A DNA stretch of 64,000 nucleotides from Candidatus Yonathbacteria bacterium (GTDB lineage Bacteria; Patescibacteriota; Minisyncoccia; Phycocordibacterales; UBA1550), in NCBI GenBank assembly GCA_016215205.1, contig JACRKU010000024.1, forward strand, positions 4,321-68,320. Reading direction: 5' to 3'. The notes under the pieces were generated by a model. That model saw nothing but the letters and a program-made list of their open reading frames with translations, did no database searches and was not told the origin of the DNA. Each line of letters starts with the position of its first letter. Position 1 is the stretch's first letter. The translations under genes were made by a program, and so were the position numbers. Positions 36,326-57,765 of this stretch are shown in pieces.

Positions 36326-36327
36326 AA

Positions 36328-37335
36328 CTATAATATGTTAGATGAGTTAAATAAAACATCAATCCCAGATACGGTTAAACCAAAATGTACTCTTTTGAAA
36401 TCATTAAGTTTTAATCCCTTCGCTTTCTTCTCCAAAGCTTCTTGAATTTTTTCCTGTGTCCCTGGTTCTGCCATAAAAAGCAAGCACCCCCCGCCACCCG
36501 CGCCTAAAATCTTGCCGCCCCAAGCCCCCGCCTTTATGGCCGTCTCGTACAATGCATCGGTTGAATCATTTGTGACAGATGAAGCAAGGGTCTTTTTTCT
36601 CTGCCATGCTTCATGAAGCATCTCTCCCATACCTCGTAAATCTTGCGATAATAACTTATCCCTAAAAACAAGAACGGAGTCAGACATTTTTTTGTAGGTT
36701 TCAAAATTATCATCAATTTTTTTCTTTTGCCCAGAAAGGACGCTACTTGCCGATCTTGTCATCCCAGTAAAAAAAAGCATCATGTGGTTTTCAAACTTTG
36801 ACTTGAATTTAAAATCCATAAATACTGGCTCCACAGAAACGGTTCCATCCGTATTAAAAGTAATGACGTTTAATCCGCCATACGCTGCTGCATATTGATC
36901 CTGCTTACCGATTGGCTCTTTCAAAATATCTATTTCAAGTTCGCATGCAGCTTGTGCTGTTTCTTCTTTACTAATCTTTTTGCCTTTAATTGAATAAAGG
37001 GCTTTCATTAGGGCGACAGTAAAAGAAGAGGATGACCCGAGACCAGTTTTTGCAGGTAAATCAGCAAAAGAAGCGATTTCAATCCCTTTTGGGATTTCCA
37101 TTTTTACTAAGGCTTCTTTGAATCGAGTGTGGGATATCTCTAAAACATCTTCAACAGTTTCTGTTTTAGAATATTTCATAATGAAATTACCAAAGTTGCC
37201 GGTGTGGGCAACTATATAAACAAATTTATCTATGCTTGTAGACAAAACTCGCCCCGGGTAACGAGAATAAAATTCTTTTATATCGGTTCCGCCTCCAACA
37301 AAACTAATTCTAAGCGGGGCTCGTGTAATAATCAT
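36328..37335 (-). CDS. hddA: GHMP-family D-glycero-alpha-D-manno-heptose 7-phosphate kinase
   Basis: 335 aa; MIITRAPLRISFVGGGTD N-terminus and PAKTGLGSSSSF (GHMP motif II) as in HddA of the GDP-heptose pathway. Confidence 0.75.
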   Translation of the reverse strand: MIITRAPLRISFVGGGTDIKEFYSRYPGRVLSTSIDKFVYIVAHTGNFGNFIMKYSKTETVEDVLEISHTRFKEALVKMEIPKGIEIASFADLPAKTGLGSSSSFTVALMKALYSIKGKKISKEETAQAACELEIDILKEPIGKQDQYAAAYGGLNVITFNTDGTVSVEPVFMDFKFKSKFENHMMLFFTGMTRSASSVLSGQKKKIDDNFETYKKMSDSVLVFRDKLLSQDLRGMGEMLHEAWQRKKTLASSVTNDSTDALYETAIKAGAWGGKILGAGGGGCLLFMAEPGTQEKIQEALEKKAKGLKLNDFKRVHFGLTVSGIDVLFNSSNIL

Positions 37336-37370
37336 AATCTATGTAAGTGATTTAAGGCTTGTTTTACAAG

Positions 37371-38087
37371 CTAAATTGATATGCCTTGGGCATCATTATA
37401 GCTTTCTGGGGTGCCAATATCAAGTAAAATTTCATCCATTTTATATACATACATTTCCTCATTTTTGACAAGTAGATAAGGAAAAATGTCGTGTCCAAAA
37501 TCAAGGGGTGTTTTATCAATAGAATTTAGATACTTAAAAATTCTACTGTTTAAAACATAAATGCCTGCATTGGCATATTTACTAATAATCTTGTTAGATC
37601 TTGGCTTTTCTATAAATTTAAGTATCTTACCATTCTCGTTAAAACTTATGATGCCTTTGCCTTCTGGATGCTCCTCCACATAAGAAGCAATCGTTGCGAT
37701 ACCATTTTTTTCTTTATGTGCCGCTATCAATTTTCCATAGTTTATATTTGTCAGATTATCACCATACACAACCAAAAAATCATCCTCGCCCTTAAAAAAG
37801 GGGGCGTTTTTTTTCAAAGTGCCGGCACTTCCTAAGAGCTCCTTTTCAAAAGCTATCTGTATAGTAAGTCCGTTAAATCTATCTCTATTATTTTTTACAA
37901 ACTCGTTTATCTGTTTATGCAAGTAATGAGTATTAATTAAAATATCTCTGACACCGTATTTATACAGACTTTCTAAATGATAAGAGAGTAGCGGTTTGCC
38001 ATTAATCGGCAATAATGACTTTGGTGTTGTTTCCGTAAGTTGCCGCAGTCTTGTCCCTAAGCCAGCAGATAAAATTAATGCTTTCAT
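37371..38087 (-). CDS. hddC: D-glycero-alpha-D-manno-heptose 1-phosphate guanylyltransferase-like nucleotidyltransferase
   Basis: 238 aa; MKALILSAGLGTRLRQLT nucleotide-binding loop. It is positioned with gmhA/gmhB/hddA, consistent with HddC. Confidence 0.7.
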   Translation of the reverse strand: MKALILSAGLGTRLRQLTETTPKSLLPINGKPLLSYHLESLYKYGVRDILINTHYLHKQINEFVKNNRDRFNGLTIQIAFEKELLGSAGTLKKNAPFFKGEDDFLVVYGDNLTNINYGKLIAAHKEKNGIATIASYVEEHPEGKGIISFNENGKILKFIEKPRSNKIISKYANAGIYVLNSRIFKYLNSIDKTPLDFGHDIFPYLLVKNEEMYVYKMDEILLDIGTPESYNDAQGISI

Positions 38088-38102: not shown

Positions 38103-40022
38103 TTATCTTATTGCATTTACCATCATGTTCTCTGGTTTTTCATTTTTATAATGATGAAATGAAATAGACTTGTACTTATTTGCGTATTGTTTTGTTAACG
38201 CTGATAACGGGAGCAACTTTTCTCTTGGTAGAGCCGTGTTATAAAAAGGAGTGAAGCAAATCTCTGATGGATAATTTCTCTTCATCCAGTTTGCGTATGT
38301 GTCATAATCAGAAACACACGAGGGCTCCTTCTGATCTATTGTTGACAAATACACCTTATCCCACGTTGCACCATGTAGATCCCCAATACGCTTCTTCATC
38401 TCTTTAAGTCTCTCGCAATCAAAAATCATCATATGCGCTGTATAGGAGAGCGTATTATTGCTTGAGTACCCAAATAATTTTTTAAACGCTCTAAAATACT
38501 GGTCATGCCATTCCTCACTTTGCAAAAATACATCCTTTCCATTTTTAATAAACGAATGTGGTTTAATTAAAATAGTATCAGAATCTAAAATAAAATACTT
38601 TTTTTGTGTTACGAATATGTCTCCTGATAGCTTCAATAATTGCTGAAATATCCACCCGCTTCTATCCTTCCCGTTTACTACATAATTAATAAAATCTTTC
38701 CCGTACCCCAAAACGGAAACCTCATCTACAAAAACATAATTATGCTTTTCGCAAAATTCCAGCATTTCCTTATTTTTTTGAGAGACAATATAGAAATTAG
38801 AAATCTTGTGCTTCAGATTTTCCTTTATAGATTCTATAACTTCCCCAACTAATGTATAGTCTTTTGACACAGTAGGGATAACCACATCAATAATCTCTGA
38901 TTGGGTATGCAAATCAATCTCGTTAAATTCAACCTTAAAAACTTTTCTTATCTTCAAAAAAAGAAAGGCGGAAATGAGAAAAGGGTTCCATTCTCTTGAT
39001 TTGCATAAATTTATAAATACATCAACCTTTTTGATAAATGTAAAAATCATTCCAATACCAGCTTTAAATAAAATTGTTGTCCTTTTTTTTATTCTCATCA
39101 TAATCCCTTTTATGCTCGCGCGTTTTATATACTTTCTATTGTGAAATAATGTCTTATCTTTTTTACGGGCAGGCGTCAAAAAGGCTGCGTAATTTTCGTT
39201 AAGTATGTTTCCTTTTTTCTTTAACTCCTCAAAAAGATTTCGCGAGAAATCCTGACAATCAAACTTCAGGATGAAGTTTTGTGCTTCGGCATTAAACAAC
39301 GACAAGTGCTCTGACAAAATATCCTGCCAATTATAATTTATCTTTCCAGAATCAGATTCCCTAATATAATAGGATTTTTTGTATTGTACCCTGTGCAGAT
39401 ACGAAGCCTCCGGGCAAGTATAAGCAACAAGTCCGCTAGCGAGAAATCTCCATGCAAACCCCTGTGTATCAAAACCGTGTTCCGTGGGGTACCCGCCCGC
39501 AATAACAAAAGCTCTTTTAGTATGCATGAATGTTGAATAGAGAGGGCACATAATTCCATCCTTTTGCAAAAGGCTTTCAAAGGGTATTTTTTCTCCTGCA
39601 AAACTAAAAATATCTACGCGCTCAATATCATTAGTATTTCTCCCCCTAAACTTGATTGATTTATGAATACCCACCCCATCACATTTTTTCTCATTCATAA
39701 ATTTGAACATTCTGGAAAGAGTGTCCTGTGGGAGGATATCATCGCTATCAAGGCAAAAAATAATTTCTGCGCTTGTGTGACTGACAGCGGTGTTCCTTGT
39801 TGCTCCGCCACCTCTATTTTTATCATGGTAAAAAATCTTAATTTCAGAATGCTTATTTGCGAGCTCCTTCATCACCGTCTTTGTGCTATCAGTTGACCAA
39901 TCATCCACCATTATGATTTCAAAATTCCGCAGACCTTGAACATAGCAGGATTCCACTGCCTCCTCAAGAGTTTCAGCGCAATTGAAGCAGGGGATTACTA
40001 TTGAAATATCTTTTTTAGGCAT
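38103..40022 (-). CDS. Two-domain glycosyltransferase: N-terminal GT2 domain + uncharacterised C-terminal domain of about 350 aa
   Basis: Start moved to the ATG (MPKKDISIVIPCFN...). GT2 blocks IVIPCFN, MVDDWSTD, DSDD. The C-terminal half (from about aa 300) has no recognised motif. Confidence 0.7.
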   Translation of the reverse strand: MPKKDISIVIPCFNCAETLEEAVESCYVQGLRNFEIIMVDDWSTDSTKTVMKELANKHSEIKIFYHDKNRGGGATRNTAVSHTSAEIIFCLDSDDILPQDTLSRMFKFMNEKKCDGVGIHKSIKFRGRNTNDIERVDIFSFAGEKIPFESLLQKDGIMCPLYSTFMHTKRAFVIAGGYPTEHGFDTQGFAWRFLASGLVAYTCPEASYLHRVQYKKSYYIRESDSGKINYNWQDILSEHLSLFNAEAQNFILKFDCQDFSRNLFEELKKKGNILNENYAAFLTPARKKDKTLFHNRKYIKRASIKGIMMRIKKRTTILFKAGIGMIFTFIKKVDVFINLCKSREWNPFLISAFLFLKIRKVFKVEFNEIDLHTQSEIIDVVIPTVSKDYTLVGEVIESIKENLKHKISNFYIVSQKNKEMLEFCEKHNYVFVDEVSVLGYGKDFINYVVNGKDRSGWIFQQLLKLSGDIFVTQKKYFILDSDTILIKPHSFIKNGKDVFLQSEEWHDQYFRAFKKLFGYSSNNTLSYTAHMMIFDCERLKEMKKRIGDLHGATWDKVYLSTIDQKEPSCVSDYDTYANWMKRNYPSEICFTPFYNTALPREKLLPLSALTKQYANKYKSISFHHYKNEKPENMMVNAIR

Positions 40023-41064
40023 AATCTTTGTGAATACCAATAACACCTCCAAGACTTTCTAAATCCGCTTTTGTAATTATTTCTACCAATTCATCAAAGG
40101 TCACCTTTGGTTCCCATTTAAGAACTTTCTTTGCGCGAGAACTATCTCCTAGCACACTATTTACTTCATTCGGTCTATAGTATTTTGGGTTAATTCTTAA
40201 AATAATTTTCCCTGAGGAATCTTTAGCAACTTCTTTAAGCCCCTTTCCATGCCATGTTATTTTCATATCAAGAGCGTTTGCTGTTGCATTCACAAAATCC
40301 CTGACCGAATGGCTTTCACCGGTTGAAATAACAAAATCTTGCGGGGTTTTTTGCTGAAGCATCAACCACATAGCCTCAACATAATCTTTTGCATATCCCC
40401 AATCTCGCTTTGCGTCAAGATTACCAAGCTCAAACGAGTCCTGAAGGCCTAACTTTATTTTTACCATTGAATGAGTAATTTTCCTAGTTACAAAGTTTCT
40501 GCCTCGTCGGGGAGATTCGTGGTTGAAAAGAATCCCTGCGCAGATAAAAAAATTATGTCGTTTCCTATATTCAACAACGTAATCATTGTGAGCTTTTACC
40601 TTCGATTCTGCGTATGGACTTACTGGATTAAAAGGAGTTGTTTCTTTTTGTGGTGTTTCAAGCACATTCCCAAACATTTCAGAGGATGATGCCTGATATA
40701 TCCTTACCTGCGGATTTAAGTGAGTCGCCTCGCTAACTAATCTACCAAATCCATTATAATTGACCTCCATGGTTTCTTCTGGACACTGAAAAGAAACTCC
40801 GACTTGAGATTGCGCTCCTAGGTTATATATTTCATCTGGTCTTGATTCTTCTAGCGCTCGGATAATAGAATTATTATCCCTCATGTCACCGTAAATAATT
40901 TTTATCATGCGGTCCAAAGATAACCTCTCAATTCTCATTAATGGATCGGTGCTTGCTGGTCTCACAAGGCCATACACTTTATATCTCTTCTTTAACAAAA
41001 ATTCAGCAAGATAAGAGCCGTCCTGGCCGGTAATGCCTGTAATTAAGGCTCTTTTTTGTTTCAT
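40015..41064 (-). CDS. Second GDP-sugar 4,6-dehydratase paralogue (Gmd family; candidate GDP-manno-heptose 4,6-dehydratase DmhA-like)
   Basis: 349 aa; [29 protein letters not shown] (YxxxK), NHESPRRG. Clearly homologous to Gmd at 26187 but divergent (not a recent duplicate). Directly upstream of the GDP-heptose genes. Confidence 0.8.
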   Translation of the reverse strand: MKQKRALITGITGQDGSYLAEFLLKKRYKVYGLVRPASTDPLMRIERLSLDRMIKIIYGDMRDNNSIIRALEESRPDEIYNLGAQSQVGVSFQCPEETMEVNYNGFGRLVSEATHLNPQVRIYQASSSEMFGNVLETPQKETTPFNPVSPYAESKVKAHNDYVVEYRKRHNFFICAGILFNHESPRRGRNFVTRKITHSMVKIKLGLQDSFELGNLDAKRDWGYAKDYVEAMWLMLQQKTPQDFVISTGESHSVRDFVNATANALDMKITWHGKGLKEVAKDSSGKIILRINPKYYRPNEVNSVLGDSSRAKKVLKWEPKVTFDELVEIITKADLESLGGVIGIHKDYA

Positions 41065-41775: not shown

Positions 41776-42666
41776 TTAATCTTTTGCGTTCCTTATCTTA
41801 TCAGTCCAATAGTCCATATACAATAGGGCCTGATTTGAACCCTTTTTTATGTTTTCAAATTTATTCTCAATATCCTTTTCACTAAGACCGTCTAGATCAT
41901 GCCAATCTTTGACCAACCAAAGAGGTATTCCCAGTTTTTCAAAATAATCTATTGTTACAGAACTTTTTACCACCGGTACAACGCCGAGATACAAAGCATC
42001 CCACGTCCTATGCCCCTCCACGCACGAACCAGGCGGTGAAGCAACAAATTTATAGGTTGCGAGCAAGCATAAATAATTATAAAAATTAAGCCATCTCTTA
42101 ACAGTCTCCGCTAGTGGATTACTTTTTAAAACATCCAGTGCCACTTGTCTTTCGTTTGTATTTGTTGACACAGTGAAACCGTAAAAAATACGGTTCATTT
42201 TAGTAATTTGTTTTTTAGTTACATTATTAAATATTGCGGGGATCCCCGTAACATACCAATGCTTATTTTCGATTCCTAGCGGAATAGGGACAACTCTTGG
42301 ATCAACTACTAAAACATTTATACCATACCATTTTAAAATTTTATCATCTGAAAGATCCAGTACTTCCTGACCTACAACAGCATCACCATTGTGGGTAATT
42401 AAAATGTAGGGATGTTTTATCTCTGGGTGAATCTCCGTAAGAAATTTTTTTATCTTACTATCACCAACAAAAACAATGTTTCTTTCTTTTATATCCGCAG
42501 GATTAAAAGTTTTAAGATCGTCATATACATAGTCTGCAAAGTTGCGAAAACCGTCACCCGTCACATATGGATAACTTGATGGCCGCGGGTTAGATGAATA
42601 CTTTATTAAAATACGCCCTGCAATGCGGTATATACGAAAGATGAGGTCAAGTAATTTCTGTATCAT
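41776..42666 (-). CDS. Hypothetical protein (candidate novel glycosyltransferase)
   Basis: 296 aa, no recognised family; translationally coupled within the operon. Confidence 0.55.
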   Translation of the reverse strand: MIQKLLDLIFRIYRIAGRILIKYSSNPRPSSYPYVTGDGFRNFADYVYDDLKTFNPADIKERNIVFVGDSKIKKFLTEIHPEIKHPYILITHNGDAVVGQEVLDLSDDKILKWYGINVLVVDPRVVPIPLGIENKHWYVTGIPAIFNNVTKKQITKMNRIFYGFTVSTNTNERQVALDVLKSNPLAETVKRWLNFYNYLCLLATYKFVASPPGSCVEGHRTWDALYLGVVPVVKSSVTIDYFEKLGIPLWLVKDWHDLDGLSEKDIENKFENIKKGSNQALLYMDYWTDKIRNAKD

Positions 42667-43553
42667 AGTCCTTTTATTAGTAATGTAACATAGCGTGCCA
42701 CTTTATTATAAAATATGACGACTCTAATTAGTTTTTTATAAATAAAAACAGGAATGTATTCTCTTATTCCTGTACGAAAAGCTAACTTCCAATGTGGTAT
42801 TTCAACCGTGGAAGCCACTGGTCTAAGAACTCTTTTGGAATAGAGATCTCTTGACTGAAGAGAGTAACCTTCACCACCGTCATCAATTGAGGCAAAGAGC
42901 TCATATTTTGGAATAGCGTAATGAATGGGCAACCACTGAACCTCTTCTGCTCCCTTTTCAAAATCAAGAGGTGTTTTTTTGGGATAGCTCCGCAATACTG
43001 GAGCGCCTCTTTTAATAATTTTTTTAAATAGGCTCGTTGCGAATATGCCAAGCATGCTTATTATGTAAGCTGAGTATTTTTCATTTATTCTATGATTTGC
43101 TTCTTGATCAAGAATAAAGCTGAAAATATTTTTTGATTCCTTCTTTTTTACATCACGATAAATTTCCAATGGTCGACCAGAAAACCACCAAGAATGAGTC
43201 AAATACTCTGCCCCCGTTGATTTCATCTCACTAATAATCTCCTTATACCTAGTAACATCCACCTGATTTACATGATCTTCAACCCAGAATAAGATGAAAT
43301 CTGTATCAATAATATCGATCATTTGTTTTGTATCATCGAACCACCCTTCTTTGCTATCAAGTGCATAAGAAATTAACTTTTGTTTCAAATTGCTGCGCAA
43401 AAAGATCATTGCATCTTCTTTAAATTCCCCCCTAATATTAATTACCCATTTCTGAGCCTCTATATCTTTAAATGAAAGGAAGGAGTCTTTCATTCTTAAA
43501 AACCGCTCTTCGTCGTTAACATAAAAATTAGCGAAGATGCTTAGAGTTGCCAT
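42663..43553 (-). CDS. Hypothetical protein (candidate novel glycosyltransferase or modifying enzyme)
   Basis: 296 aa, no recognised family; ATGA overlap with the downstream gene. Confidence 0.55.
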   Translation of the reverse strand: MATLSIFANFYVNDEERFLRMKDSFLSFKDIEAQKWVINIRGEFKEDAMIFLRSNLKQKLISYALDSKEGWFDDTKQMIDIIDTDFILFWVEDHVNQVDVTRYKEIISEMKSTGAEYLTHSWWFSGRPLEIYRDVKKKESKNIFSFILDQEANHRINEKYSAYIISMLGIFATSLFKKIIKRGAPVLRSYPKKTPLDFEKGAEEVQWLPIHYAIPKYELFASIDDGGEGYSLQSRDLYSKRVLRPVASTVEIPHWKLAFRTGIREYIPVFIYKKLIRVVIFYNKVARYVTLLIKGL

Positions 43554-43556
43554 ATT

Positions 43557-44702
43557 TTACCAGAAAGTCACCTGTGGGTTTATATTCTCAAGAATATCTT
43601 TTTTAATTTCTTCATCATAACCCCCTGCCCTCAAAATCACATTTACTGGACCCTTGTTTTTGAGTACCCTAGGCGATTCTATCACAAAATTAGTACCGTA
43701 CAATCTTTTACCTTGCTTAATTGGGCTATTATCTAAAATAGCGATAATTTTATCAGTCTTGAGCCCAAATTGAATTAAGGTCTGTGAAAATATATGCGCC
43801 CCAAATAAATAAATTGGTTGATCACTTTTTTCTATTAAACTATTCAGATCACTAATCATGTCGAGATGGTAGTTTATATAACCCATAAATACCTTCTTGT
43901 ACTCCTCGTACTTATTCTCTATTGAAGCTGGTGCAAGCGGAACATCAGTTTTTTCTGTAGCATAAAATATACTATGGGGGTCTCCGTAATATTGCTTTTC
44001 CAAAATAACAAAACCGTATTTCTCTAGTATGTATTCCGTAAAGTATTCAGTTAAAAAAACTGTATGCTCAAAATTTATGCAATTTGTCCAGTTTAATTTG
44101 AGCATCGGCATAAGGTTAGGAAATGTGAAGATATGTTTGTCTCCATTTTTCATAAACTTTGAGATATGCTCGATAAAAACTATCGGATTATATGTATGCT
44201 CAAATACATGCGAATGAATAATTGTATCAAAATGTTCATCTATGACAAATTTATCATCAAACCAAGCCTTGATAACTTTTATTTGCGGATCGTCTATGTG
44301 TTCAGGGTTCGGCTCAACTATGGTCCATTTTATATTTTGATCAAGCGCACGATAATTTCTAGCTATCTGGTCGTGGGCTCCCCCTACTTCTAATATATTT
44401 TTCGGTTTATATTTATGAAGAAATTGCGCGAAAGCAGTATAATGCTCTTTCCATATTTTACCAGTGCCATCATTGTGCTGATTCTTGTATAAGATTTCCA
44501 GAGGGATTAATTTTCGGAGCTGGATCAATCCAGTATCCTTACAAATGTCCCAAATCATATCAGCTACGATGTCCTCATCTTCTGGACTATCAACGCACCC
44601 CATAAACACAGGGAAATTCTCAAGTGTGTGCAAGTGCTCTAAATTATCCCCGCTGGCAAGCAAGCTTTTTGTTCTTTCATTAAACGTAGCGAGTTTTTTC
44701 AT
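43557..44702 (-). CDS. SAM-dependent methyltransferase, two-domain (possible sugar C-/O-methyltransferase, TylC3/NovU-like architecture)
   Basis: 381 aa; central ILEVGGAHDQ SAM loop and HSHVFEH block, with an extra C-terminal domain of about 150 aa as in C-methyltransferases. Confidence 0.5.
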   Translation of the reverse strand: MKKLATFNERTKSLLASGDNLEHLHTLENFPVFMGCVDSPEDEDIVADMIWDICKDTGLIQLRKLIPLEILYKNQHNDGTGKIWKEHYTAFAQFLHKYKPKNILEVGGAHDQIARNYRALDQNIKWTIVEPNPEHIDDPQIKVIKAWFDDKFVIDEHFDTIIHSHVFEHTYNPIVFIEHISKFMKNGDKHIFTFPNLMPMLKLNWTNCINFEHTVFLTEYFTEYILEKYGFVILEKQYYGDPHSIFYATEKTDVPLAPASIENKYEEYKKVFMGYINYHLDMISDLNSLIEKSDQPIYLFGAHIFSQTLIQFGLKTDKIIAILDNSPIKQGKRLYGTNFVIESPRVLKNKGPVNVILRAGGYDEEIKKDILENINPQVTFW

Positions 44703-44713
44703 ACACCGTTGTA

Positions 44714-45106
44714 CTACTTCTGCTTGTGTTCGCTTTCAATCTTTCCATCAGGTCTTTGTGTATCATCCTCAATACGAACGACATCATCAACTTCTGGTGT
44801 TGAAACTTCCTGAAGAACAATGTCCGTTATTGCAATAACTCTATGCTTTTTTGGTGGAGCAACATTGAAAAAATCTCCTGCCTTCATCTGGAATTTTTCC
44901 ACAACGCCCTTATCGTTTTCTAGCCAAACCTCTGCTTCACCATCTATAATATAATTGGTTTCTCTTTTTTTATTATGATACTGGAAGCTTGTTCTCGTGC
45001 CCGCATTTATATAAATTCGCTTGTAGCAGTAGGAATCATTTAACTCAAGCCAAATTTCCTTCCCCCATGGTTTTGAAACCTCCTTAAACGGATTATTCTT
45101 GTACAT
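44714..45106 (-). CDS. Small PMI-type cupin protein (possible sugar isomerase/epimerase)
   Basis: 130 aa; KPWGKEIW...TSFQYHNKKRETNYIIDGEAEV follows the cupin_2/mannose-6-P-isomerase motif (PWG...S.Q.H..R.E...i..G). Confidence 0.6.
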   Translation of the reverse strand: MYKNNPFKEVSKPWGKEIWLELNDSYCYKRIYINAGTRTSFQYHNKKRETNYIIDGEAEVWLENDKGVVEKFQMKAGDFFNVAPPKKHRVIAITDIVLQEVSTPEVDDVVRIEDDTQRPDGKIESEHKQK

Positions 45107-46112
45107 AATGATTAATTACATCTGATATAATGTTTATAATTGACTCCTTTATATCCTCACGCTTAGCCAGCTCTTCAATTAGAAACATGTACTCTGGTGA
45201 GGCAAAATGATAATGTCCAGCAATAACAGAGCATAACATTTTATTGTCAGGAGTATTTTTATTCATCCATTTTTTCCATTTGCCGCCTTGATAAACTTTT
45301 TCTAAGAAATTATCTAATGATATTCCGTAAACAAGACATTTTGTTATAACAATTTGTGTTTGAATAACGCCAAGCTGTGGAGCGATATTTACGGCGTCAA
45401 CAATTCCGCCCCTCATCTTAATTTCATCCTTAGTTAGGTAGTCGGCGTTGTGCTCCTTTAATTTGAGCCCCTTGCTCTTGAGCATTCTTGATACATTTTC
45501 AACAAATGGCTTATTAAACGACCCAGCTTGATTAATTTCTTTAATTACTGTGCCGGTCTGAACCACATAAAACTCTGGTTCACAAAAACTTTTAAAGAAA
45601 TCAATCTCCCTCTCCCATTCAGCTAAATTGGGAAGACTGTAATTTGTTCCTGTATTCTCATCGGTACCTATCTCTATTTGAATAGATGGTTTCAATGATA
45701 GACAATGTAAAATTGCTTTTTTAGTTGCCTCTAACCTTTCACTATTTGTTCCTTTGAAATGACAAAAATCTATGTGAATTAAGTCAAAGCCGTTCTTAAT
45801 ATCATCCTCGATTGTTGAGTATGTATCTGTAATATCATAATTACCATTAAAACCTGGGCCACAATGGTCTCGGCAGATTTTAACCTCAGCATTTGGATTT
45901 TGCTTCCTCACCTCTCCTACAAACTCCATATATTCTTTAGTCGTCCAGTTATTTACATACCCTCCAGAATAATCTACTTGGTTTTTAGATGCAATAAGCA
46001 TCAGTGGTTTCCGGTTAAAATGGGAATACCTGAACACCGCCTCGACAATCTCTGGGCTCATCGGCCCAAGCGCTAAGGAAACTAAATTTTTGTTGTTTTT
46101 AACAGGTGTCAT
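45093..46112 (-). CDS. GatZ/KbaZ-family protein (tagatose-bisphosphate-aldolase accessory / ketose-6-phosphate 4-epimerase-like)
   Basis: 339 aa; LMLIASKNQVDYSGGYVNNWTTKEY, KICRDHCGPGF, DLIHIDFCH align block-by-block with E. coli KbaZ ([36 protein letters not shown]). It is shorter than KbaZ by about 90 aa. Confidence 0.65.
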   Translation of the reverse strand: MTPVKNNKNLVSLALGPMSPEIVEAVFRYSHFNRKPLMLIASKNQVDYSGGYVNNWTTKEYMEFVGEVRKQNPNAEVKICRDHCGPGFNGNYDITDTYSTIEDDIKNGFDLIHIDFCHFKGTNSERLEATKKAILHCLSLKPSIQIEIGTDENTGTNYSLPNLAEWEREIDFFKSFCEPEFYVVQTGTVIKEINQAGSFNKPFVENVSRMLKSKGLKLKEHNADYLTKDEIKMRGGIVDAVNIAPQLGVIQTQIVITKCLVYGISLDNFLEKVYQGGKWKKWMNKNTPDNKMLCSVIAGHYHFASPEYMFLIEELAKREDIKESIINIISDVINHYVQE

Positions 46113-46130
46113 AATCGTGATATTTTATCA

Positions 46131-47147
46131 TTATTTAAGAGATTTATTAAGCATATTTCTTCCTAAACTATGCAGTAACGTATCAAACGGCGCATTATGA
46201 AGTGGCGCCATATTAAGAAATATTAACGATGTGAGAATATTTACTTTTTTAACATCAAATTTATTGTCACGCAGAAATTGCTCATAATGCTCTTTTACCT
46301 CTAATAAATCACTTTTAATGAAGAAGTTATAGCATGCATTATCATCACAAATACTGGAGGAGAACATCCCGTCTTTAATTAGCGGGTAAGACAAAATCAT
46401 GCCACCATATAGTTTTGCTAGATCATAATACAAGTCCCCAAAATCAGTGAGTCCGCCAAACTCATGTCGCCAGTCAATTAGTAAAAATTTCTCTTTGTCT
46501 GAATGTGGGTTTCTGGGGATAAGGACATTATCAAATTGTAAATCACCATGAAAATTAGCTGGTACGCCATTTGTTATATAATCCCAATCAATTTTGCTTA
46601 ACAGTTCATCTGTTGTTGGTATCTCTATTCCATTAATAAACCTGCTTTCCTCAGTTGTGCCAATTTTATCATAGAACATTTGCAGTCGCTTTTTTGTCTT
46701 CGTGTAATAGAAGTCATAGCAAGCTTTAGTAAACTTATCCCTATCCTTGTCTGATAAGCTAACCTCTTTCCATAAGTATTTTTTTGCCCACGAAAGGAAA
46801 TCTGTTGCTATTTTGGGATCCAGAACACTATAGACAGTTTGACCATCAACGAGAAGGTACGAGTAAAAATTATTTCTATACCCCTCAACAACTGGCGTCA
46901 ATCCTCGGAGTGCATTGTTTGCGCGATAATTTCTTTTTTCAGCTACTGTTTTATCAGAAAAAAACTTAATCACACGATTATTCACAAAATATAAAAATTC
47001 ATCTTCTTTGCTAAAATTAAATTTTTTCTCCTCACCAGAAAAATTTTTATTTGTTTCATCGTATTTTGAATCAGAACCAGTGTCAAACCATGTAAAACCG
47101 ATAGGTACTAATCTCCTCTCGAGAAGACCCTTAAGCCCATCTGTCAT
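46131..47147 (-). CDS. APH/choline-kinase-fold small-molecule kinase (LicA/AmgK/NahK-like)
   Basis: Start moved to the ATG (MTDGLKG...). Catalytic loop HGDLQFDNVLI and Mg-binding LIDWRHEFGG (the IDW/DFE-type motif) of the APH/ChoK kinase fold. Confidence 0.7.
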   Translation of the reverse strand: MTDGLKGLLERRLVPIGFTWFDTGSDSKYDETNKNFSGEEKKFNFSKEDEFLYFVNNRVIKFFSDKTVAEKRNYRANNALRGLTPVVEGYRNNFYSYLLVDGQTVYSVLDPKIATDFLSWAKKYLWKEVSLSDKDRDKFTKACYDFYYTKTKKRLQMFYDKIGTTEESRFINGIEIPTTDELLSKIDWDYITNGVPANFHGDLQFDNVLIPRNPHSDKEKFLLIDWRHEFGGLTDFGDLYYDLAKLYGGMILSYPLIKDGMFSSSICDDNACYNFFIKSDLLEVKEHYEQFLRDNKFDVKKVNILTSLIFLNMAPLHNAPFDTLLHSLGRNMLNKSLK

Positions 47148-47182
47148 CTGCAATTCATTGTCTCGAAGTTCTCTGTTTTGCT

Positions 47183-47725
47183 CTAGTGCTGAAAAAACTC
47201 TTTGTAGTCGTGAATACCAGCGAGACCAATAAAGGCAAACTTGTTATCTGTTTTAATCTTTGTATCGAGTTGATAGATAAGATTATTTTTCATTTTTATT
47301 GTGCAATAAGCCTCTGTTTCGCGCACGGGGGCAACACCAATCCAGTTCTCTTCTGGTAGTGGGACATCTTCAAGTACCATCGTGTCTGCGGTAGAAAAAA
47401 TAAACGGGCAATCTAAATATTTTTTACATGCAAGAAGCGAGTACCCAGGCCCGCTACCTGGACCTGTATATTTATCAACTTCAACAAAATTAAAAATTCT
47501 GTCTGGGTAGGCGAGTTTTAGGTAATCAATAACAGTATCTTTCTTGTGACCAACTGCTATTACTATCTCTGTATCAACTGGAAATTTCTCAATAATATAC
47601 GAAATAACTGCTTTATTATTTATTGGCAAGATACCCTTATTGATAGACTCGGAAAAATGACCCATTCTAGATCCTACTCCAGCTGTTAAAATACATACCT
47701 TATATTTTTCATCTTTATCTTTCAT
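47183..47725 (-). CDS. LicC/MurU-like nucleotidyltransferase
   Basis: 180 aa; KVCILTAGVGSRMG nucleotide-binding loop. It lies immediately downstream (minus strand) of the AroE-like gene with a 4-nt overlap. Confidence 0.7.
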   Translation of the reverse strand: MKDKDEKYKVCILTAGVGSRMGHFSESINKGILPINNKAVISYIIEKFPVDTEIVIAVGHKKDTVIDYLKLAYPDRIFNFVEVDKYTGPGSGPGYSLLACKKYLDCPFIFSTADTMVLEDVPLPEENWIGVAPVRETEAYCTIKMKNNLIYQLDTKIKTDNKFAFIGLAGIHDYKEFFQH

Positions 47726-48555
47726 ATTTCTTTAAGAATGTCTTTTACATACTTTGTCATCATTTTAAGTGGCGCTTTTTTGCCCGTATACAATGTGAAC
47801 TGTTCAGCCGCTTGATAGACGGCCATTTCATATCCGGAGATTATTATTTTCCCTTCTTTTTTTGCTGTTTTTATAAGCTTAGTATGAATTGGTGACACCA
47901 CAACGTCCATTATAGCATGGTAGTTTTTTAGTTCATCCTTATCAATAATCATATCTTGGACTAATGGAGTCATACCTACTGGTGTTGCATTTATGAGTAT
48001 GTCGGCCTTTATTTGCTTGCGCGCATTACTTGGACAATATTTTATGCCAAATTTTTTTGAAATTATGCGAGCCTTTTTCTCGTCTCTATTTGATAGTGTT
48101 ATTTCCTTACATTGACCCCTTTTAAGAGCTACTATTATTGCCCTTGATGCGCCACCTGCTCCAATGATGTGGGCAGTTTTACCCTTAATTGGATAGTATT
48201 TTTTAAGGGCCGTTTCTACGCCAACGACATCGGTATTATGTCCGGTAAGGACGCCTTTTTTATTCACAATAGTATTTATAGCTCCAATTTCTTTTGCGAC
48301 AGTGGTTACTGCGTCTACATATTTGTGTACGATTGTTTTATGCGGCATTGAGACACCGCAACCACGAATATCTAGCGCGCGTATTCCCAATATTGCCTTA
48401 TTTAAATTATCAGGAGTGACACGAAATGGTTTATAAATAAAATCAAGAGACAGAGACTTGAAAGTTCTATTAAAAATAAGGCTCCCAAAATTTCCAGGAG
48501 CAGACGCAATTGAAATGCAGAATTCCGTATTTTTTGTAATCTTAATATTTTTCAT
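47722..48555 (-). CDS. Shikimate/quinate-dehydrogenase-like NAD(P)-dependent oxidoreductase (AroE family)
   Basis: Start moved to the ATG (MKNIKITKN...). Substrate-domain S..P..F N-terminus, GHNTD catalytic block, GAGGASRAI dinucleotide loop. Confidence 0.7.
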   Translation of the reverse strand: MKNIKITKNTEFCISIASAPGNFGSLIFNRTFKSLSLDFIYKPFRVTPDNLNKAILGIRALDIRGCGVSMPHKTIVHKYVDAVTTVAKEIGAINTIVNKKGVLTGHNTDVVGVETALKKYYPIKGKTAHIIGAGGASRAIIVALKRGQCKEITLSNRDEKKARIISKKFGIKYCPSNARKQIKADILINATPVGMTPLVQDMIIDKDELKNYHAIMDVVVSPIHTKLIKTAKKEGKIIISGYEMAVYQAAEQFTLYTGKKAPLKMMTKYVKDILKEI

Positions 48556-48567
48556 AACAATCAATTA

Positions 48568-49071
48568 CTAGAGAATATTTTTAAGACTACGGGGTACTTC
48601 TAAAAACTTTTCCATTAAATGCAGGCACGCCTCTGCGACCGCTCCTTCTCCAGATTTTGCACTAGTTACAAAATCTGCTTTATTGCGTGCTAAATAAAAA
48701 GCATTCGCAGGCGCAATACTGTATGCTACGTGCTCAAAAATCATCGCATCATAAATACCATCCCCGACATATGCAGATTCACTAAGATCAAAATTTTCTT
48801 GAAGCCACGAGAGCCTTGTGGATTCACTTACTAGATTGAGTTTTAGTCCCATATCAACAGCAACCCTTTTTTCGGTTATTTCAAACCCTCTTTTGTCTGC
48901 AGAAATTGCGCAGACATTTATTAATTTACTTATCAGCTTGACGCCATCATTGTCATGCGGCCCGAAGACTTTTGCGAGTTTACCGTCTTTCGTGTATAGG
49001 AACTGCCCCGTTGTTAACACTCCATCAACATCCAGAATTAGATTCTTTATTACTTTTTGTTTGCCGTTCAT
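48568..49071 (-). CDS. KdsC-family HAD phosphatase (3-deoxy-octulosonate-8-phosphate-phosphatase-like)
   Basis: Start moved to the ATG (MNGKQKVIKNLILDVDGVLTTG). DVDGVLTDG-type motif I, GDGIYD motif III as in KdsC/YrbI. Confidence 0.75.
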   Translation of the reverse strand: MNGKQKVIKNLILDVDGVLTTGQFLYTKDGKLAKVFGPHDNDGVKLISKLINVCAISADKRGFEITEKRVAVDMGLKLNLVSESTRLSWLQENFDLSESAYVGDGIYDAMIFEHVAYSIAPANAFYLARNKADFVTSAKSGEGAVAEACLHLMEKFLEVPRSLKNIL

Positions 49072-49215
49072 AAACGCGATTATAGACCATAAAGCTACGT
49101 TTTGCAATTTGAATTATTGCTCAAAATCTATGCGTAGCTATCTCAAGCCTACAGCAAACACCATATAATCAACAAGGGGAAAAGACATTAAGAAATGGTG
49201 AACTGGTACCTTATT

Positions 49216-50769
49216 TTAAAAACGGTTATTTAAGGTAGCGATGGCTTGCCTTATGAAATTATAAATATCGTGAGAGTCTTCTTTTTCAAAAAAACCAAGG
49301 AGATAGTGGGTGGACATAAATAAAATGCCGGAAATCCCCAAACCAACGATAACCAGCGGGAAACTGCTGATAAGTGGTTTTATAAAAAATACATCTACCA
49401 AAAAAACTATCGTTGATGTTATAAAAAGTTGTCTCATAAGTTTCAAATAATGAGCGCGTCGGAACGTGAGTTCTAAATATGACTTTTCTGTTATGTAAAT
49501 AAGGAATATGTACGGAATGAGCGCCAGAAAATATGCCCAAGCCGCGCCAACGAGACCAAAACGAGGAAGTAGTGTGACCAAAAGAATGGCATTAAGCACT
49601 GCGGTACTCACTGAGGTAATACTCAATGCTTTCAATTTACCCATACCCAAAAGAAAATTATTAAGTGGGTAGGTGATTGCAAGAGCAAGGTTTGTTAGCG
49701 CCAAAATTACAAGTACACTCGTGGCTTTTTCTGCAAGCTCAGGACTAATCCAATACTCCAGCATTTGATAAGCGAATGCTATAAACGAGATGGTAACTGC
49801 CGTAGAAATAATAGTTATTAACCGCATAGACCTCACATAAAGATTTTTTGTCATTTCTCTGTTCCCTCCCCCTTCAAAGTGGGCGGTCATTGGAAAAACA
49901 ACAGTAGAAAGAGTAGTCGATAAAGATGGCACCTTGTTGGTAATGCTTCCCGGGAGAGAATAAAATGTTAAGTTTGACGGCCCAAGAAATAGCGGAATAA
50001 TCATACGGTCTAGATAGGTGAGTGATGACCCCGCAAGATTATTTAAAAATGAAACTATCCCAAATCTGTAACATTTAATGGCTACCAATTTATTCCATCC
50101 ATACATTCTAATATATGAACACTCGTCTGGGTTCAATATCGTCATAGAATATTTCTTGTATACAAAATAAAAGACAAGAGCAAGAAGTGCTTGCAAAAGA
50201 AAAAGAGTATTAATGGACCAACCAAGAAACACAACTGCCAAAATACCCGCTTGTTGAATCGTTATAAAACTAATGCCAATCTTAGAACTTATATCAAAGC
50301 GCTGATACGCTATAGGAATTAATGCATAAAGACCACTGATACTATTTGTAAAAAACAGGACACCTGCATACATGAAAGCAGGAATGTATGCCCGATATGC
50401 GCCAACAGTTTCCCCGGGGAATGATACTAACCCTATAAAAATAGAAGAAATAATAAAGATGGCTCCAGTAAGCCCAATAATGACCAGTATAGTATTAGTG
50501 GTCTTGAATAAATCCTTTATCCCCTCCTTGTCTTGACTACCATGCTTTTCGGCAATAAATTTGCTCAGTGCGACAGAAACCCCCAGATCTAAAAGACCTG
50601 CTAGGCTGACAAGTGTACTAATAAAAATATAAATACCATACTCCTTGACTCCGAAATGGTGAACAATTATTGGTGTAACGAAGATGGCAATAAGCACTGG
50701 CCCCCCAAAAGAAAGCAGGCTGTACGAGATATTTTTGAGGGCGCGTTCTTTTATATTTATGGCGTTCAT
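49216..50769 (-). CDS. wzx: Wzx-type oligosaccharide flippase (MOP superfamily polysaccharide biosynthesis protein)
   Basis: Start at the ATG (MNAINIKERALKN...). About 14 TM helices, typical PST-family length and N-terminal KN..Y........pvl pattern. Confidence 0.8.
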   Translation of the reverse strand: MNAINIKERALKNISYSLLSFGGPVLIAIFVTPIIVHHFGVKEYGIYIFISTLVSLAGLLDLGVSVALSKFIAEKHGSQDKEGIKDLFKTTNTILVIIGLTGAIFIISSIFIGLVSFPGETVGAYRAYIPAFMYAGVLFFTNSISGLYALIPIAYQRFDISSKIGISFITIQQAGILAVVFLGWSINTLFLLQALLALVFYFVYKKYSMTILNPDECSYIRMYGWNKLVAIKCYRFGIVSFLNNLAGSSLTYLDRMIIPLFLGPSNLTFYSLPGSITNKVPSLSTTLSTVVFPMTAHFEGGGNREMTKNLYVRSMRLITIISTAVTISFIAFAYQMLEYWISPELAEKATSVLVILALTNLALAITYPLNNFLLGMGKLKALSITSVSTAVLNAILLVTLLPRFGLVGAAWAYFLALIPYIFLIYITEKSYLELTFRRAHYLKLMRQLFITSTIVFLVDVFFIKPLISSFPLVIVGLGISGILFMSTHYLLGFFEKEDSHDIYNFIRQAIATLNNRF

Positions 50770-50837
50770 TTGCAAGGTTTCTTTATCTTCCCCATTATAG
50801 CTGAAATTAGAGGAAATAGGATATAATATAAGTTCCT

Positions 50838-54409: not shown

Positions 54410-55804
54410 TCAATATGGCTCCTCGTCTTCAGTAATTTCAAAATCTTCGGCAGAAATGGTATTCTTTTCTTCTTTTTCTCTGGTGAGACGAATTCCGAGA
54501 AGCGCAAGAGCGGCAAGAAATGCCGCGCCGATGTACCACGGCCACATACTTCCCTCTTTCGGAACAGTAAAAGGCGTTGTCGTTCCAATTGGCATAAATG
54601 CATCTGCTGCGCTAGCAGTTTGTTTATACGACACAGAAGCGACTTTTTCTTGAAGACGCGCTTGCGCTGCGGGTTTTACTATTGGCGCTTGAATGTTCTT
54701 CTGTACATCTTTCAAAGCTTGCTCGTATAGCAGACCATTTGGATAAAAAATCTTGATAAACGAAAGTGGTGCCCGAAAGCCAGTCGTCTCGGGCGCGAGA
54801 GTTATGACAGAGCCGGCAAGAAGCATTGTGTGTTCCGGAAAAGTAAAACGCCTATAATCGGCTTCAACTATCCACGATGATAGGTCGATATCTCTCGCGC
54901 CGTCGTTTGCAATATCCACCGCAGAAGAAGTAGTGGCGTGCAGGGACGCACGGAGAAATGCCGGCGACACAGCAATTTTTATACGCGTACTTACGGAAGG
55001 TGTGCCGTACCCGGTCGATACATCAAGGGCGACACTGTACGTCCCCGGATAGCGGAACACATGCGATGCGATTTTTCCCGAGCCAGTTTCGCCATCGCCA
55101 AATGTCCACAAGTAGTATGCGCCATCAAGCAGTTTCTTGTTTGAATCAACCGCTTCTCCGGAAAAAAATATAGGCGCTCCGGAAACAGTACTGCCTGATT
55201 GTATTATTATGCGCGCGGTTGCGGGTTCTCCGAAAGCTGCCGCGCCTCCTGTGGCAGATGCAGGGGTTTTTGCCTGTGCTCCTCTAGGCGTTTGGCTTGC
55301 CTCTGATGAAGGCGTATTTGCATTCCCCGGAGTTGGCGCCGCTCCTTGCCACGCGCCGTCAATCTTATGAATGGAATTACCATCGCCTGCGCCGCCCTGG
55401 TCTCCTGTATAAACCGCCGTGTCAGAAACAGAGCCATCAGGCATTTTGAATGAGATGGTCTCACCGGTATTTTTTAATGAAAAAGAACTGTCAAGAACAA
55501 TGCCGGAAAAACCCGCATGGTCGCTTAAAAATGTTTGCGCATTGTCGGCAATAATTGCATACGCACCTGAAAGAAGATTCGTGCTCCCCTGTACAGATAC
55601 CAAACTATGGTTGCTTCCTTCTTCAAAAAATTTCGCCTGAGCAATGTCCACAGACGCGCTTCCTTGATTCACTACCTCCACCCACTCATGTCCGGTATCC
55701 GCCCCTTCCGGGTCGTACATTATTTCCGAAATAAAAACCTGCGCGGAGACGGTCCGCGCGAAAAATAAGACAAGAAACGGAAATAAATACTTCATCTTAT
55801 TCAT
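54410..55804 (-). CDS. Cell-surface protein with lamin-tail domain (LTD) and PKD domain, C-terminal TM anchor
   Basis: 464 aa; signal peptide; VFISEIMYDPEGADTGHEWVEVVN (LTD); YLWTFGDGETGSGKIASHVFRYPGTYSVALDV (PKD); C-terminal hydrophobic helix + acidic tail. TGA stop. Confidence 0.7.
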   Translation of the reverse strand: MNKMKYLFPFLVLFFARTVSAQVFISEIMYDPEGADTGHEWVEVVNQGSASVDIAQAKFFEEGSNHSLVSVQGSTNLLSGAYAIIADNAQTFLSDHAGFSGIVLDSSFSLKNTGETISFKMPDGSVSDTAVYTGDQGGAGDGNSIHKIDGAWQGAAPTPGNANTPSSEASQTPRGAQAKTPASATGGAAAFGEPATARIIIQSGSTVSGAPIFFSGEAVDSNKKLLDGAYYLWTFGDGETGSGKIASHVFRYPGTYSVALDVSTGYGTPSVSTRIKIAVSPAFLRASLHATTSSAVDIANDGARDIDLSSWIVEADYRRFTFPEHTMLLAGSVITLAPETTGFRAPLSFIKIFYPNGLLYEQALKDVQKNIQAPIVKPAAQARLQEKVASVSYKQTASAADAFMPIGTTTPFTVPKEGSMWPWYIGAAFLAALALLGIRLTREKEEKNTISAEDFEITEDEEPY

Positions 55805-57710: not shown

Positions 57711-57720
57711 GGGGGAGTTG

Positions 57721-57765
57721 ATAGCCACTAGTCAATAGCCAATAGTGAATAGCAGATACGATAAA
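57721..57765 (-). repeat. 7-nt periodic CTATTNN array abutting the start codon of the T4CP-like gene
   Basis: Minus strand reads CTATTCA CTATTGG CTATTGA CTAGTGG CTATCAA CTCCCCC ATG. Confidence 0.5.

Follow-up and report, generated by a model that had tools for sequence, protein, structure and literature searches.

A conserved gene cassette predicted to make a nucleotide-activated sugar in a glycan island of a Candidatus Yonathbacteria bacterium

What is made by a tight group of carbohydrate genes whose full set corresponds to no characterised pathway? Such a group, hereafter the module, lies on the minus strand between positions 44714 and 49107 of a 64,000-nucleotide stretch (the window) of contig JACRKU010000024.1 from a Candidatus Yonathbacteria bacterium. 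A first-pass annotation, made from the sequence alone, had described it as six consecutive genes of unusual composition that may act as one functional module in the synthesis of a nucleotide-activated rare sugar or alditol, and had named no characterised pathway with this gene set; our searches of Pfam, NCBIfam, the PDB and the literature likewise returned none. The answer that we favour, with a probability of roughly 0.55, is a route of five enzymes, with a methyltransferase for tailoring, that would convert a central ketose phosphate into a nucleoside diphosphate (NDP)-activated rare sugar destined for the glycan that the surrounding island assembles and flips. Gene structure, folds, catalytic motifs, conservation of the neighbourhood and homology of a fused enzyme to the AfhE version of phage RB69 are established by observation in the sections that follow.

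Gene structure of the module

All six minus-strand open reading frames (ORFs) were recovered, joined by overlaps of 4 to 14 nt or separated by gaps of 11-30 nt, and the family calls of the first-pass annotation (KdsC HAD, AroE-like, LicC/MurU-like, APH-fold kinase, GatZ/KbaZ and phosphomannose isomerase (PMI)-type cupin) were reproduced by profile and structure searches. The count of six genes was not: the nucleotidyltransferase and kinase ORFs form one gene, so that the module comprises five. ORFs 47183-47725 and 46131-47153 are the halves of this gene and their frames join at a run of six T (T6). Read upstream of its TTG start, the kinase frame supplies the C-terminal third that the nucleotidyltransferase fold otherwise lacks (motifs E-x-Q-x-TD and W-F-D-T-G), and a related contig encodes a 532-aa protein whose alignment passes from one window frame to the other exactly at the T run. 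In another Candidatus Yonathbacteria contig (L005), the run is T7 and the gene is intact, encoding a 531-aa protein with 95% identity to that of the window. Over 7020 bp, a Logan contig (L087) differs from the window by a single gap, the extra T, and by no mismatch, and its gene is called as 531 aa. Since this contig is otherwise identical and its gene is intact, the split in the window amounts to a one-base homopolymer difference, and the T6 is most likely an assembly error rather than heterogeneity within the population.

The module sits inside a run of at least 16 minus-strand genes that starts with a Wzx-type flippase gene (49216-50775) and ends with GmhB (35221-35733), with overlaps or very short spacers at the gene junctions. 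A terminator scan found no terminator-like sites between the genes of this run, and promoter and terminator scans inside the module gave nothing exceeding shuffled background. G+C content is 0.34-0.38 over the whole island (~29-53.5 kb) versus 0.45-0.51 outside; low G+C is a trait of the whole island and not of the module in particular.

The module recurs in cellular genomes

Eighty genome loci were retrieved with the GatZ-like protein of the module, and partners were counted within 8 kb of the GatZ-like gene. The carriers belong to Patescibacteria, Nanoarchaeota, Woesearchaeota and other DPANN archaea, and further copies occur in metagenome-assembled genomes (MAGs) labelled in their records as belonging to Bdellovibrionales, SAR86, Pelagibacteraceae, Omnitrophota, Myxococcota, Planctomycetota and Spirochaetota. 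The fused nucleotidyltransferase-kinase gene accompanies the GatZ-like gene in 68 of the 80 loci, the cupin in 62 and the HAD phosphatase in 56, while a reductase of SdhL type is found in 24 and one of the SDR family in 22. The fused gene is present in 44 of the 50 loci that have at least 5 kb of sequence on either side, and 24 of the 50 combine it with cupin, phosphatase and reductase. This neighbourhood recurs in dozens of unrelated genomes and is not due to chance. The idea of one functional module for a nucleotide-activated sugar, which the first-pass annotation had staked on the genes being co-located elsewhere, is supported by this recurrence in many genomes.

Two of the roles are filled by more than one kind of protein. 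Where the KdsC-type HAD is absent, an IMPase-family phosphatase or a GmhB-type HAD is often present instead, and the reductase can be an SdhL, SDR or GFO-family enzyme or be absent altogether, as in about one third of the cassettes. Such non-homologous stand-ins for phosphatase and reductase indicate that functions are conserved rather than descent shared, as is expected of required pathway roles. In Myxococcota loci, the GatZ-like and cupin genes are paired with a GFO/IDH/MocA oxidoreductase. A more distant arrangement was found on the symbiotic plasmid pSS05631a of Sinorhizobium sp. CCBAU 05631 (L085, 12022-15498), where a GatZ-like gene (35% identity) is accompanied by genes for a cupin, a DegT-family aminotransferase, a HAD protein and a DeoR regulator. 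This plasmid cluster lies amid insertion sequence elements, near the type III secretion effector gene nopM, and may represent an amino-sugar variant of the front end.

The conserved unit also continues past position 44714, the boundary originally drawn, to include the adjoining methyltransferase gene. Nucleotide similarity between the window and L005 (88%) is restricted to 43419-49110, from the HAD gene through the methyltransferase gene into the start of the next gene, and the flanks are diverged. A methyltransferase is present in 21 of the 80 genome loci, and more often in those without a reductase (13/35). Nucleotidyltransferase-methyltransferase fusions of 581-630 aa occur in three loci (L010, 11697-13442; L023, 11378-13270; L044, 3906-5765). 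Taken together, the block shared with L005, the co-occurrence and the fusions show that the methyltransferase belongs to the cassette.

The fused enzyme is a remote homologue of AfhE

In the recently described phage route to UDP-arabinose, which serves arabinosyl-5-hydroxycytosine DNA, an isomerase yields arabinose 5-phosphate, AfhE converts it into the 1,5-bisphosphate, the HAD phosphatase AfhF removes the 5-phosphate and AfhE then forms UDP-arabinose (PMC13326640). AfhE consists of an N-terminal MurU/LicC-like nucleotidyltransferase and a C-terminal APH-like kinase; the HY126 enzyme has been reported to be both an arabinose-5-phosphate 1-kinase and a UDP-arabinose pyrophosphorylase, and the RB69 equivalents are gp55 (isomerase), gp53+gp52 (AfhE) and gp51 (AfhF) (PMC13326640). 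The RB69 genes for all of these adjoin the DNA polymerase gene.

The fused family of the cassette was related to the RB69 proteins by three kinds of comparison. With hhalign, the kinase gp52 was matched at 91.9% (E 7e-7, 243 columns) and the nucleotidyltransferase gp53 at 84% (E 7e-6, 100 columns), while tblastn with RB69 gp52 against cassette family members gave direct matches at E 1e-7 to 9e-5. Foldseek with the window kinase model against BFVD placed phage nucleotidyltransferase-kinase fusions first, RB69 ORF052c reaching a TM-score of 0.66 (E 1e-10). The aligned stretches, of 177-243 residues, are about 23-28% identical to the RB69 proteins. We conclude that the fused enzyme of the window is a remote homologue of the RB69 version of AfhE (gp53+gp52).

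Taken separately, the nucleotidyltransferase half matches NTP_transf_3 in Pfam and, in a PDB profile search, LicC 1jyk (6e-11, the best match) and RmlA 3hl3; its profile also matches the HddC structures 5xhw and 6jq8. The kinase half gave no useful match in sequence searches of Pfam, NCBIfam and the PDB, and was placed by its AlphaFold2 (AF2) model (predicted local distance difference test, pLDDT, 84) and the viral structure library alone. In the PDB this model matches choline kinases (TM-score ~0.45), ethanolamine kinases, LicA, APH(2'') and MtnK. The fused enzyme measures 526-564 aa in about 60 homologues, and its GxGxR, VIKF, HGDLQFDN and DWR motifs are conserved in the family; the window copy retains them as GVGSRM, VIKF with its lysine, HGDLQFDN and IDWR. 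Loci in which the GxGxR arginine has been lost carry a second nucleotidyltransferase, stand-alone or differently fused, in 18 of 20 cases, as compared with 5 of 39 where the arginine is intact (Fisher p = 8e-9), and the two exceptions, without a detectable second nucleotidyltransferase, both lie on short contigs (13-15 kb). That the loss is offset in this manner indicates that nucleotidyltransferase activity is required for the cassette.

The likeness to the AfhE/AfhF system goes beyond the fusion with its same domain order, since a HAD phosphatase and a predicted ketose-to-aldose phosphate isomerase are also encoded in the cluster, and viral cassettes (see below) stand beside DNA polymerase as in RB69. 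The two systems differ in the isomerase, which is a PMI-type cupin here and a SIS-domain arabinose-5-phosphate isomerase there; RB69 gp55 had no match in any of 160 loci, and gp51 a single distant one. The cassette moreover adds a GatZ-like protein, a reductase of SdhL type or SDR family and a C-methyltransferase-family enzyme, and the window copy, rather than forming part of a DNA-modification module, resides in a glycan island of a cell that also encodes a Wzx flippase. Arabinose is very probably not the sugar of the cassette. The activation half of the cassette has a known precedent in AfhE/AfhF, whereas the front end of GatZ-like protein, cupin and SdhL-type enzyme occurs in no characterised pathway that we found; literature searches on GatZ with a cupin and a nucleotidyltransferase, on GatZ/KbaZ with O-antigen or capsule, and on anomeric kinase fusions gave nothing relevant.

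The other enzymes of the cassette

The GatZ-like protein is a short, divergent member of its family. Its PF08013 match is confined to the N-terminal 100 aa, and the AF2 model (pLDDT 85) has GatZ 2fiq/3txv as its top Foldseek matches (E 1e-14, TM-score 0.74-0.81), followed by class II fructose-bisphosphate aldolases. Residues D82-H83 align with the catalytic Asp87-His88 of GatZ and are invariant in 17 sequences. The family-specific active-site residues of GatZ are Cys20, Glu44 and Lys279 (PMC11907403); of these, Cys20 and Lys279 lie beyond the aligned stretch and, by our own reading of the motifs, correspond to Gly16 and Asn242. The family has 98 invariant residues, C-R-D-H-C-G-P-G among them, and 1980 homologues are 60-94% identical to the window protein. 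It is like GatZ and KbaZ in fold and in the Asp-His pair, and no GatY/KbaY-like partner was present among the frequent neighbours of its gene; it is unlike them in length (339 versus 420 aa), in aligning by sequence over the first 100 residues only and in its biosynthetic glycan setting, theirs being catabolic. In the spirochaete MAGs L066 (4430-6416) and L073 (8972-15456), a GatZ-like gene (48-50% identity) follows a ROK-family kinase gene, together with a sugar ABC transporter and a two-component system, an arrangement that looks like catabolic use of the family. GatZ and KbaZ have been reported to convert fructose 6-phosphate into tagatose 6-phosphate, on the basis of in vivo tagatose production in E. 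coli (PMC11907403). By analogy, this conversion would be the simplest guess for the cassette protein, given the retained Asp-His pair, the ROK kinase and ABC transporter beside its relatives and the lack of a GatY-like partner; another ketose, another carbon or a true aldol condensation may be involved instead.

The cupin matches PF01050 with 35.6 bits (cutoff 23.6; 1e-8) over model positions 9-116 of 116, and likewise the C-terminal region of TIGR01479. It falls far under the cutoffs of the TIGR01479 and PRK15460 equivalogs (36 versus 373 bits), as these models also span an N-terminal GMP domain, which is absent here. The motifs KPWGxExW and SxQxHxxKxE, the His88 motif and the D..R..D..R tail are conserved in 46 members. 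Median identity to the window cupin is 77% in loci with an SdhL-type reductase, 49% in loci with an SDR and 41% in loci without a reductase. The two reductase types cannot be told apart by the corresponding medians of the GatZ-like protein (62, 64 and 50%) or of the fused enzyme (59, 58 and 35%). Cupin sequence thus co-varies with the type of reductase, and the two enzymes probably handle the same intermediate.

The oxidoreductase, called AroE-like in the first-pass annotation, scores 212 bits against TIGR00507 (cutoff 200) and lies under the cutoff of all full-length equivalog models. Its best PDB match is H. influenzae HI0607 "SdhL" (1npy; 3e-47, residues 6-261), and it also matches the 5-ketofructose reductase 7cok (3e-26). 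The catalytic Lys (SMPHK) and Asp (NTD), which it shares with these proteins along with the N-terminal T..C.S...P..FG....N motif, are conserved in 25 members, and the carboxylate-binding HSxSP motif of AroE corresponds, by our own reading, to PGNFGS in the window protein. Unlike HI0607, the window gene is embedded in a nucleotide-sugar cassette. We know of no physiological substrate established for SdhL, so that the 1npy match names a family and not a reaction. In E. coli ST648, an sdhL gene adjoins the L-sorbose operon and its expression rises with sorbose (PMC12817954); this link, together with the presence of a ketohexose reductase in the family, makes a keto-sugar a plausible substrate for the predicted enzyme. 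A true shikimate pathway was set aside as unlikely: the closest structure is SdhL and not AroE, and the glycan-cassette and viral settings argue against aromatic amino acid synthesis.

The HAD protein has KdsC/YrbI proteins as its best PDB matches (6e-16 to 1e-13) and remains below the KdsC cutoffs, at 78 bits (8e-22) versus 107 for TIGR01670 and 67 versus 208 bits for PRK09484. Forty-nine family members share its DxDGV and GDGxxD motifs. A Kdo pathway of the KdsC-KdsB type was discarded on account of these scores, of the nucleotidyltransferase, which is not of the CMP-forming type, and of the lack of KdsA, KdsB and KdsD in the module by Pfam and NCBIfam profile searches. The best PDB match of the methyltransferase is the mycarose 3-C-methyltransferase MtmC (4rv9; 7.5e-4), the alignment of which includes the catalytic E-H motif; Pfam detected no N-terminal Cys4 zinc domain (PF08421) in the window protein.

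Table. Features of the module and its neighbours; positions are those of the window.
Feature	Position	Strand	Length	Basis or remark
KdsC-type (C0, cap-less) HAD phosphatase (predicted)	48568-49071	-	167 aa	TIGR01670 and PDB matches
SdhL-type shikimate dehydrogenase family NAD(P)H oxidoreductase (predicted)	47722-48555	-	277 aa	PDB and TIGR00507 matches
Predicted bifunctional enzyme: sugar-phosphate nucleotidyltransferase (N-terminal) and APH/choline-kinase-fold kinase (C-terminal)	46131-47725	-	531 aa when intact	
T6 homopolymer (T7 in intact copies), frameshift site	~47192-47197	-		Comparison with L005 and L087
Short divergent GatZ/KbaZ-family class II aldolase-fold protein	45093-46112	-	339 aa	PF08013 N-terminus; AF2/Foldseek
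Type II PMI-like cupin	44714-45106	-	130 aa	PF01050
Methyltransferase, probably of the NDP-hexose C-methyltransferase family	43557-44702	-	381 aa	PF13489 and PF08484
Protein with invariant W..EDH.N and PFD.EK motifs, candidate transferase acting on the product	42663-43553	-	296 aa	Neighbourhood
GmhB, GmhA, HddA and HddC-like nucleotidyltransferase (GDP-heptose route)	35221-38087	-		NCBIfam matches

A predicted route to an activated sugar

The enzymes can be arranged into a route whose substrates, step order, nucleotide and final sugar we infer from homology and analogy. The GatZ-like protein would first perform a metal-dependent retro-aldol/aldol reaction giving an unusual ketose phosphate, in the simplest case tagatose 6-phosphate from fructose 6-phosphate. 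The cupin, in place of the SIS-type isomerases of other routes, would turn the ketose phosphate into an aldose phosphate, and the C-terminal kinase domain of the fused enzyme would then phosphorylate the anomeric C1 to a 1,n-bisphosphate. Removal of the terminal phosphate by the KdsC-type HAD would leave an aldose 1-phosphate, which the N-terminal nucleotidyltransferase domain would join to a nucleoside triphosphate, and the methyltransferase would finally tailor the resulting NDP-sugar. The SdhL-type NADPH oxidoreductase, optional and exchangeable, would act on a carbonyl of some intermediate along this route.

The order kinase, phosphatase, nucleotidyltransferase is the most likely one in view of the homology to AfhE and of the analogy with two other routes. 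In the GDP-heptose route of GmhA/HddA/GmhB/HddC, which is encoded in the same gene string, the logic is also that of isomerase, anomeric kinase, terminal phosphatase and nucleotidyltransferase. Three of these four roles are filled by non-homologous proteins in the cassette (cupin versus SIS isomerase, APH-fold versus GHMP kinase, KdsC-type versus GmhB-type HAD), which moreover has a kinase-nucleotidyltransferase fusion, an additional epimerase or aldolase and a reductase. In the lincomycin GDP-octose route (LmbR/N/P/K/O), a C-C bond enzyme makes a ketose phosphate that is then processed by isomerase, kinase, phosphatase and nucleotidyltransferase (PMC4351081). The GatZ-like protein could likewise supply an unusual ketose phosphate to the activation steps, albeit as a class II enzyme where LmbR is a class I transaldolase, and all enzymes of the two routes come from different families.

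Several observations weigh against this reading. First, the fused gene is frameshifted in the window itself. Second, the family-specific active-site Glu44 of GatZ is replaced by an invariant Ile40, so that 4-epimerisation of fructose 6-phosphate is not assured. Third, the HAD belongs to the KdsC subfamily whereas AfhF is GmhB-like. Fourth, the best PDB matches of the two halves of the fused enzyme, LicC and choline kinases, suit a CDP-alcohol product equally well. Finally, the product of a PMI-type reaction is a cyclic aldose without a free carbonyl, so the reductase and the C-methyltransferase lack an obvious substrate, and the pairing with a DegT aminotransferase in Sinorhizobium points to a keto intermediate that is missing from the simple scheme. 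This aminotransferase, the GFO/IDH/MocA oxidoreductase of Myxococcota and the enrichment of the methyltransferase in cassettes without a reductase together suggest that an intermediate carries a free carbonyl, beyond a simple ketose-to-pyranose scheme. This is the main weakness of the model.

The cassette ranks among the most conserved pieces of the glycan islands of Patescibacteria and DPANN archaea, at 60-94% protein identity across both domains. These organisms live attached to other cells and, to our knowledge, their surface glycans are almost unstudied. The cassette further places two orphan groups, SdhL (HI0607) and the short GatZ-like clade, in a concrete setting where their substrates can be tested, and extends the AfhE/AfhF logic of activation from phage DNA modification to cellular glycans. 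More tentatively, the product might be an undescribed nucleotide sugar, for instance an NDP-activated talo- or tagato-configured or C-methyl-branched hexose, made by a phosphomutase-independent route that would give SdhL (HI0607) and the short GatZ-like clade a role; the cassette of hundreds of uncultured large phages, beside their DNA polymerase genes, might then provide the donor for a new sugar hypermodification of viral DNA, a part that the homologous AfhE/AfhF genes play for arabinose.

Alternative readings

Among the alternatives, a CDP-alditol or CDP-ketose route serving a phosphodiester-linked decoration of the teichoic-acid or LicCA type fares best, and we consider it unlikely. The ketose phosphate would here be reduced to a hexitol phosphate, dephosphorylated, rephosphorylated on a primary hydroxyl by the choline-kinase-like domain and activated by the LicC-like cytidylyltransferase, after which a phosphotransferase would transfer the phospho-alditol to the glycan. 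The PDB profile search (LicC 1jyk, 6e-11) and the best solved kinase folds (choline and ethanolamine kinases, LicA) speak for such a scheme, as does the NADPH-type reductase within the cassette; LicCA fusions moreover show the same nucleotidyltransferase-then-kinase domain order, and the CDP-6-glucitol and CDP-arabinitol routes combine a cytidylyltransferase with a reductase. However, the window kinase model is much nearer to phage AfhE-type kinases than to choline kinases (TM-score 0.66 versus 0.45), the frequent neighbours included no recognisable phosphotransferase of the LicD, TagF or Stealth type, and an isomerase would be superfluous for an alditol. The reductase is also missing from about one third of the cassettes and the methyltransferase is probably of the NDP-hexose family, so that, of the sugar and the alditol originally proposed, the sugar is retained and the alditol is possible without being favoured. 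CDP-choline decoration in the literal sense was rejected, the analogy of folds being kept: it would leave the GatZ-like, cupin and reductase genes without a use.

Somewhat less probable still is an order in which dephosphorylation comes first, the HAD freeing a sugar that the anomeric kinase would rephosphorylate before activation, in the style of MupP/AmgK/MurU or of salvage. The enzyme families would be the same, and KdsC-type HADs, which include the best matches of the HAD, normally act on monophosphates such as Kdo 8-phosphate and KDN 9-phosphate. Against this order, AfhE, the sole characterised relative, phosphorylates a sugar 5-phosphate, and the bisphosphate is the substrate of its phosphatase partner (PMC13326640); a kinase-first order is also seen for heptose and octose activation, and a free sugar would waste ATP and risk the loss of the intermediate. 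The comparison with MupP/AmgK/MurU made by the first-pass annotation thus stands for the folds, an APH-fold kinase being paired with a small nucleotidyltransferase there as in LicA/LicC, and probably does not extend to the order of steps, which we infer from AfhE/AfhF and the kinase-first GDP-heptose route. Unlike the cassette, MupP/AmgK/MurU and LicA/LicC act on a free sugar or alcohol that is taken up or recycled, and have no front end of epimerase, isomerase and reductase.

It is doubtful that the product is a higher-carbon sugar, with the GatZ-like protein acting as an aldolase or in a transaldolase-like manner to join a C3 ketol to a pentose or tetrose phosphate and the resulting heptulose or octulose phosphate being activated as in the GDP-octose route. 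KdsC-type phosphatases, the best matches of the HAD, are specialised for C8 and C9 sugars, the GatZ-like protein combines the fold of class II aldolases with the catalytic Asp-His pair, and the steps match those of LmbR/N/P/K/O one for one (PMC4351081). Yet GatZ and KbaZ are themselves epimerases, and the occurrence of stand-alone GatZ-like relatives beside ROK hexokinase-type kinases and sugar transporters suits a hexose-6-phosphate epimerase better.

An equally doubtful reading takes the frameshift as real and the window cassette as a decaying remnant with its pathway switched off, through pseudogenisation or phase variation at the T tract. T6 in place of T7 does truncate the nucleotidyltransferase and remove the natural start of the kinase. 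Nevertheless, the copy in L087 is intact while differing over 7020 bp by that one base, the window shows no other lesion and its remaining genes retain their catalytic motifs; homopolymer miscounts are frequent in assemblies, and the RB69 homologue was likewise deposited split by a sequencing error (PMC13326640).

Some of the folds are shared by inositol catabolism (IolB cupin, IolC kinase, IolJ class II aldolase) and methionine salvage (MtnK, MtnD, MtnC), which explain neither the nucleotidyltransferase nor the glycan and viral contexts.

Viral copies of the cassette

Scanning IMG/VR with an alignment of the GatZ-like protein returned 317 viral contigs with a relative, and neighbourhoods were counted in the best 80 of them (L088-L167). 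Adjacent genes encode the fused enzyme in 63 of these 80 loci, the cupin in 61, the HAD in 50 and an SdhL-type reductase in 32. The viral cassettes lie on contigs of up to 160-450 kb (for example L088, 7962-10879, and L099, 5484-8972), and many of them adjoin a gene for a DNA polymerase, primase or helicase. On a 160-kb contig, the cassette directly follows genes for a DnaB-type helicase, a primase, an exonuclease and a DNA polymerase, and genes for DNA polymerase III alpha or family B polymerases are nearby on others. The cassette is widespread and horizontally shared between cells and viruses. Its viral copies may point to sugar modification of viral DNA or virions, and those beside replication genes may mark further DNA sugar modification, of relevance to restriction evasion. 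No ThyA-like 5-hydroxycytosine synthase was found within 8 kb of the viral cassettes.

In 40 of the 80 viral loci, the gene immediately after the GatZ-like one encodes a member of a 358-374-aa family that matches nothing in Pfam or PHROG (for instance L130, 5745-6836, and L099, 8969-10063); its members are candidates for a glycosyltransferase or another enzyme that uses the product. A full-length relative of the fused enzyme (544 aa, 24% identity) is also encoded by the cultured Enterococcus phage 9183 (L169, 3893-13551), in a block with a thymidylate kinase, a ThyA homologue, a dUTPase, a small HAD, a "nucleotide sugar synthetase-like" protein and DNA polymerase III alpha. The layout of this block is typical of DNA hypermodification clusters.

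Neighbouring genes in the island

Next to the methyltransferase gene, the candidate transferase listed in the Table had no match in profile searches of Pfam, NCBIfam and the PDB. Its family is found beside the cassette in 12-13 loci (12 by ORF cluster, 13 by tblastn; L014, L027, L030, L040, L060, L062 and L067 among them), and six members are fusions of 389-404 aa with a C-terminal cupin.

The GDP-heptose genes are situated 7 kb downstream of the module, and a second GMD-type 4,6-dehydratase is encoded between them and the module at 40015-41064 (TIGR01472, 421 bits, barely over the cutoff), a stronger GMD match being located at 26175-27269. With several activation routes and GMDs, the island would make at least three or four different activated sugars. 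Just beyond the low-G+C island, positions 55797-57728 encode a TraD/VirD4-like coupling-protein ATPase with weak matches to conjugative coupling proteins.

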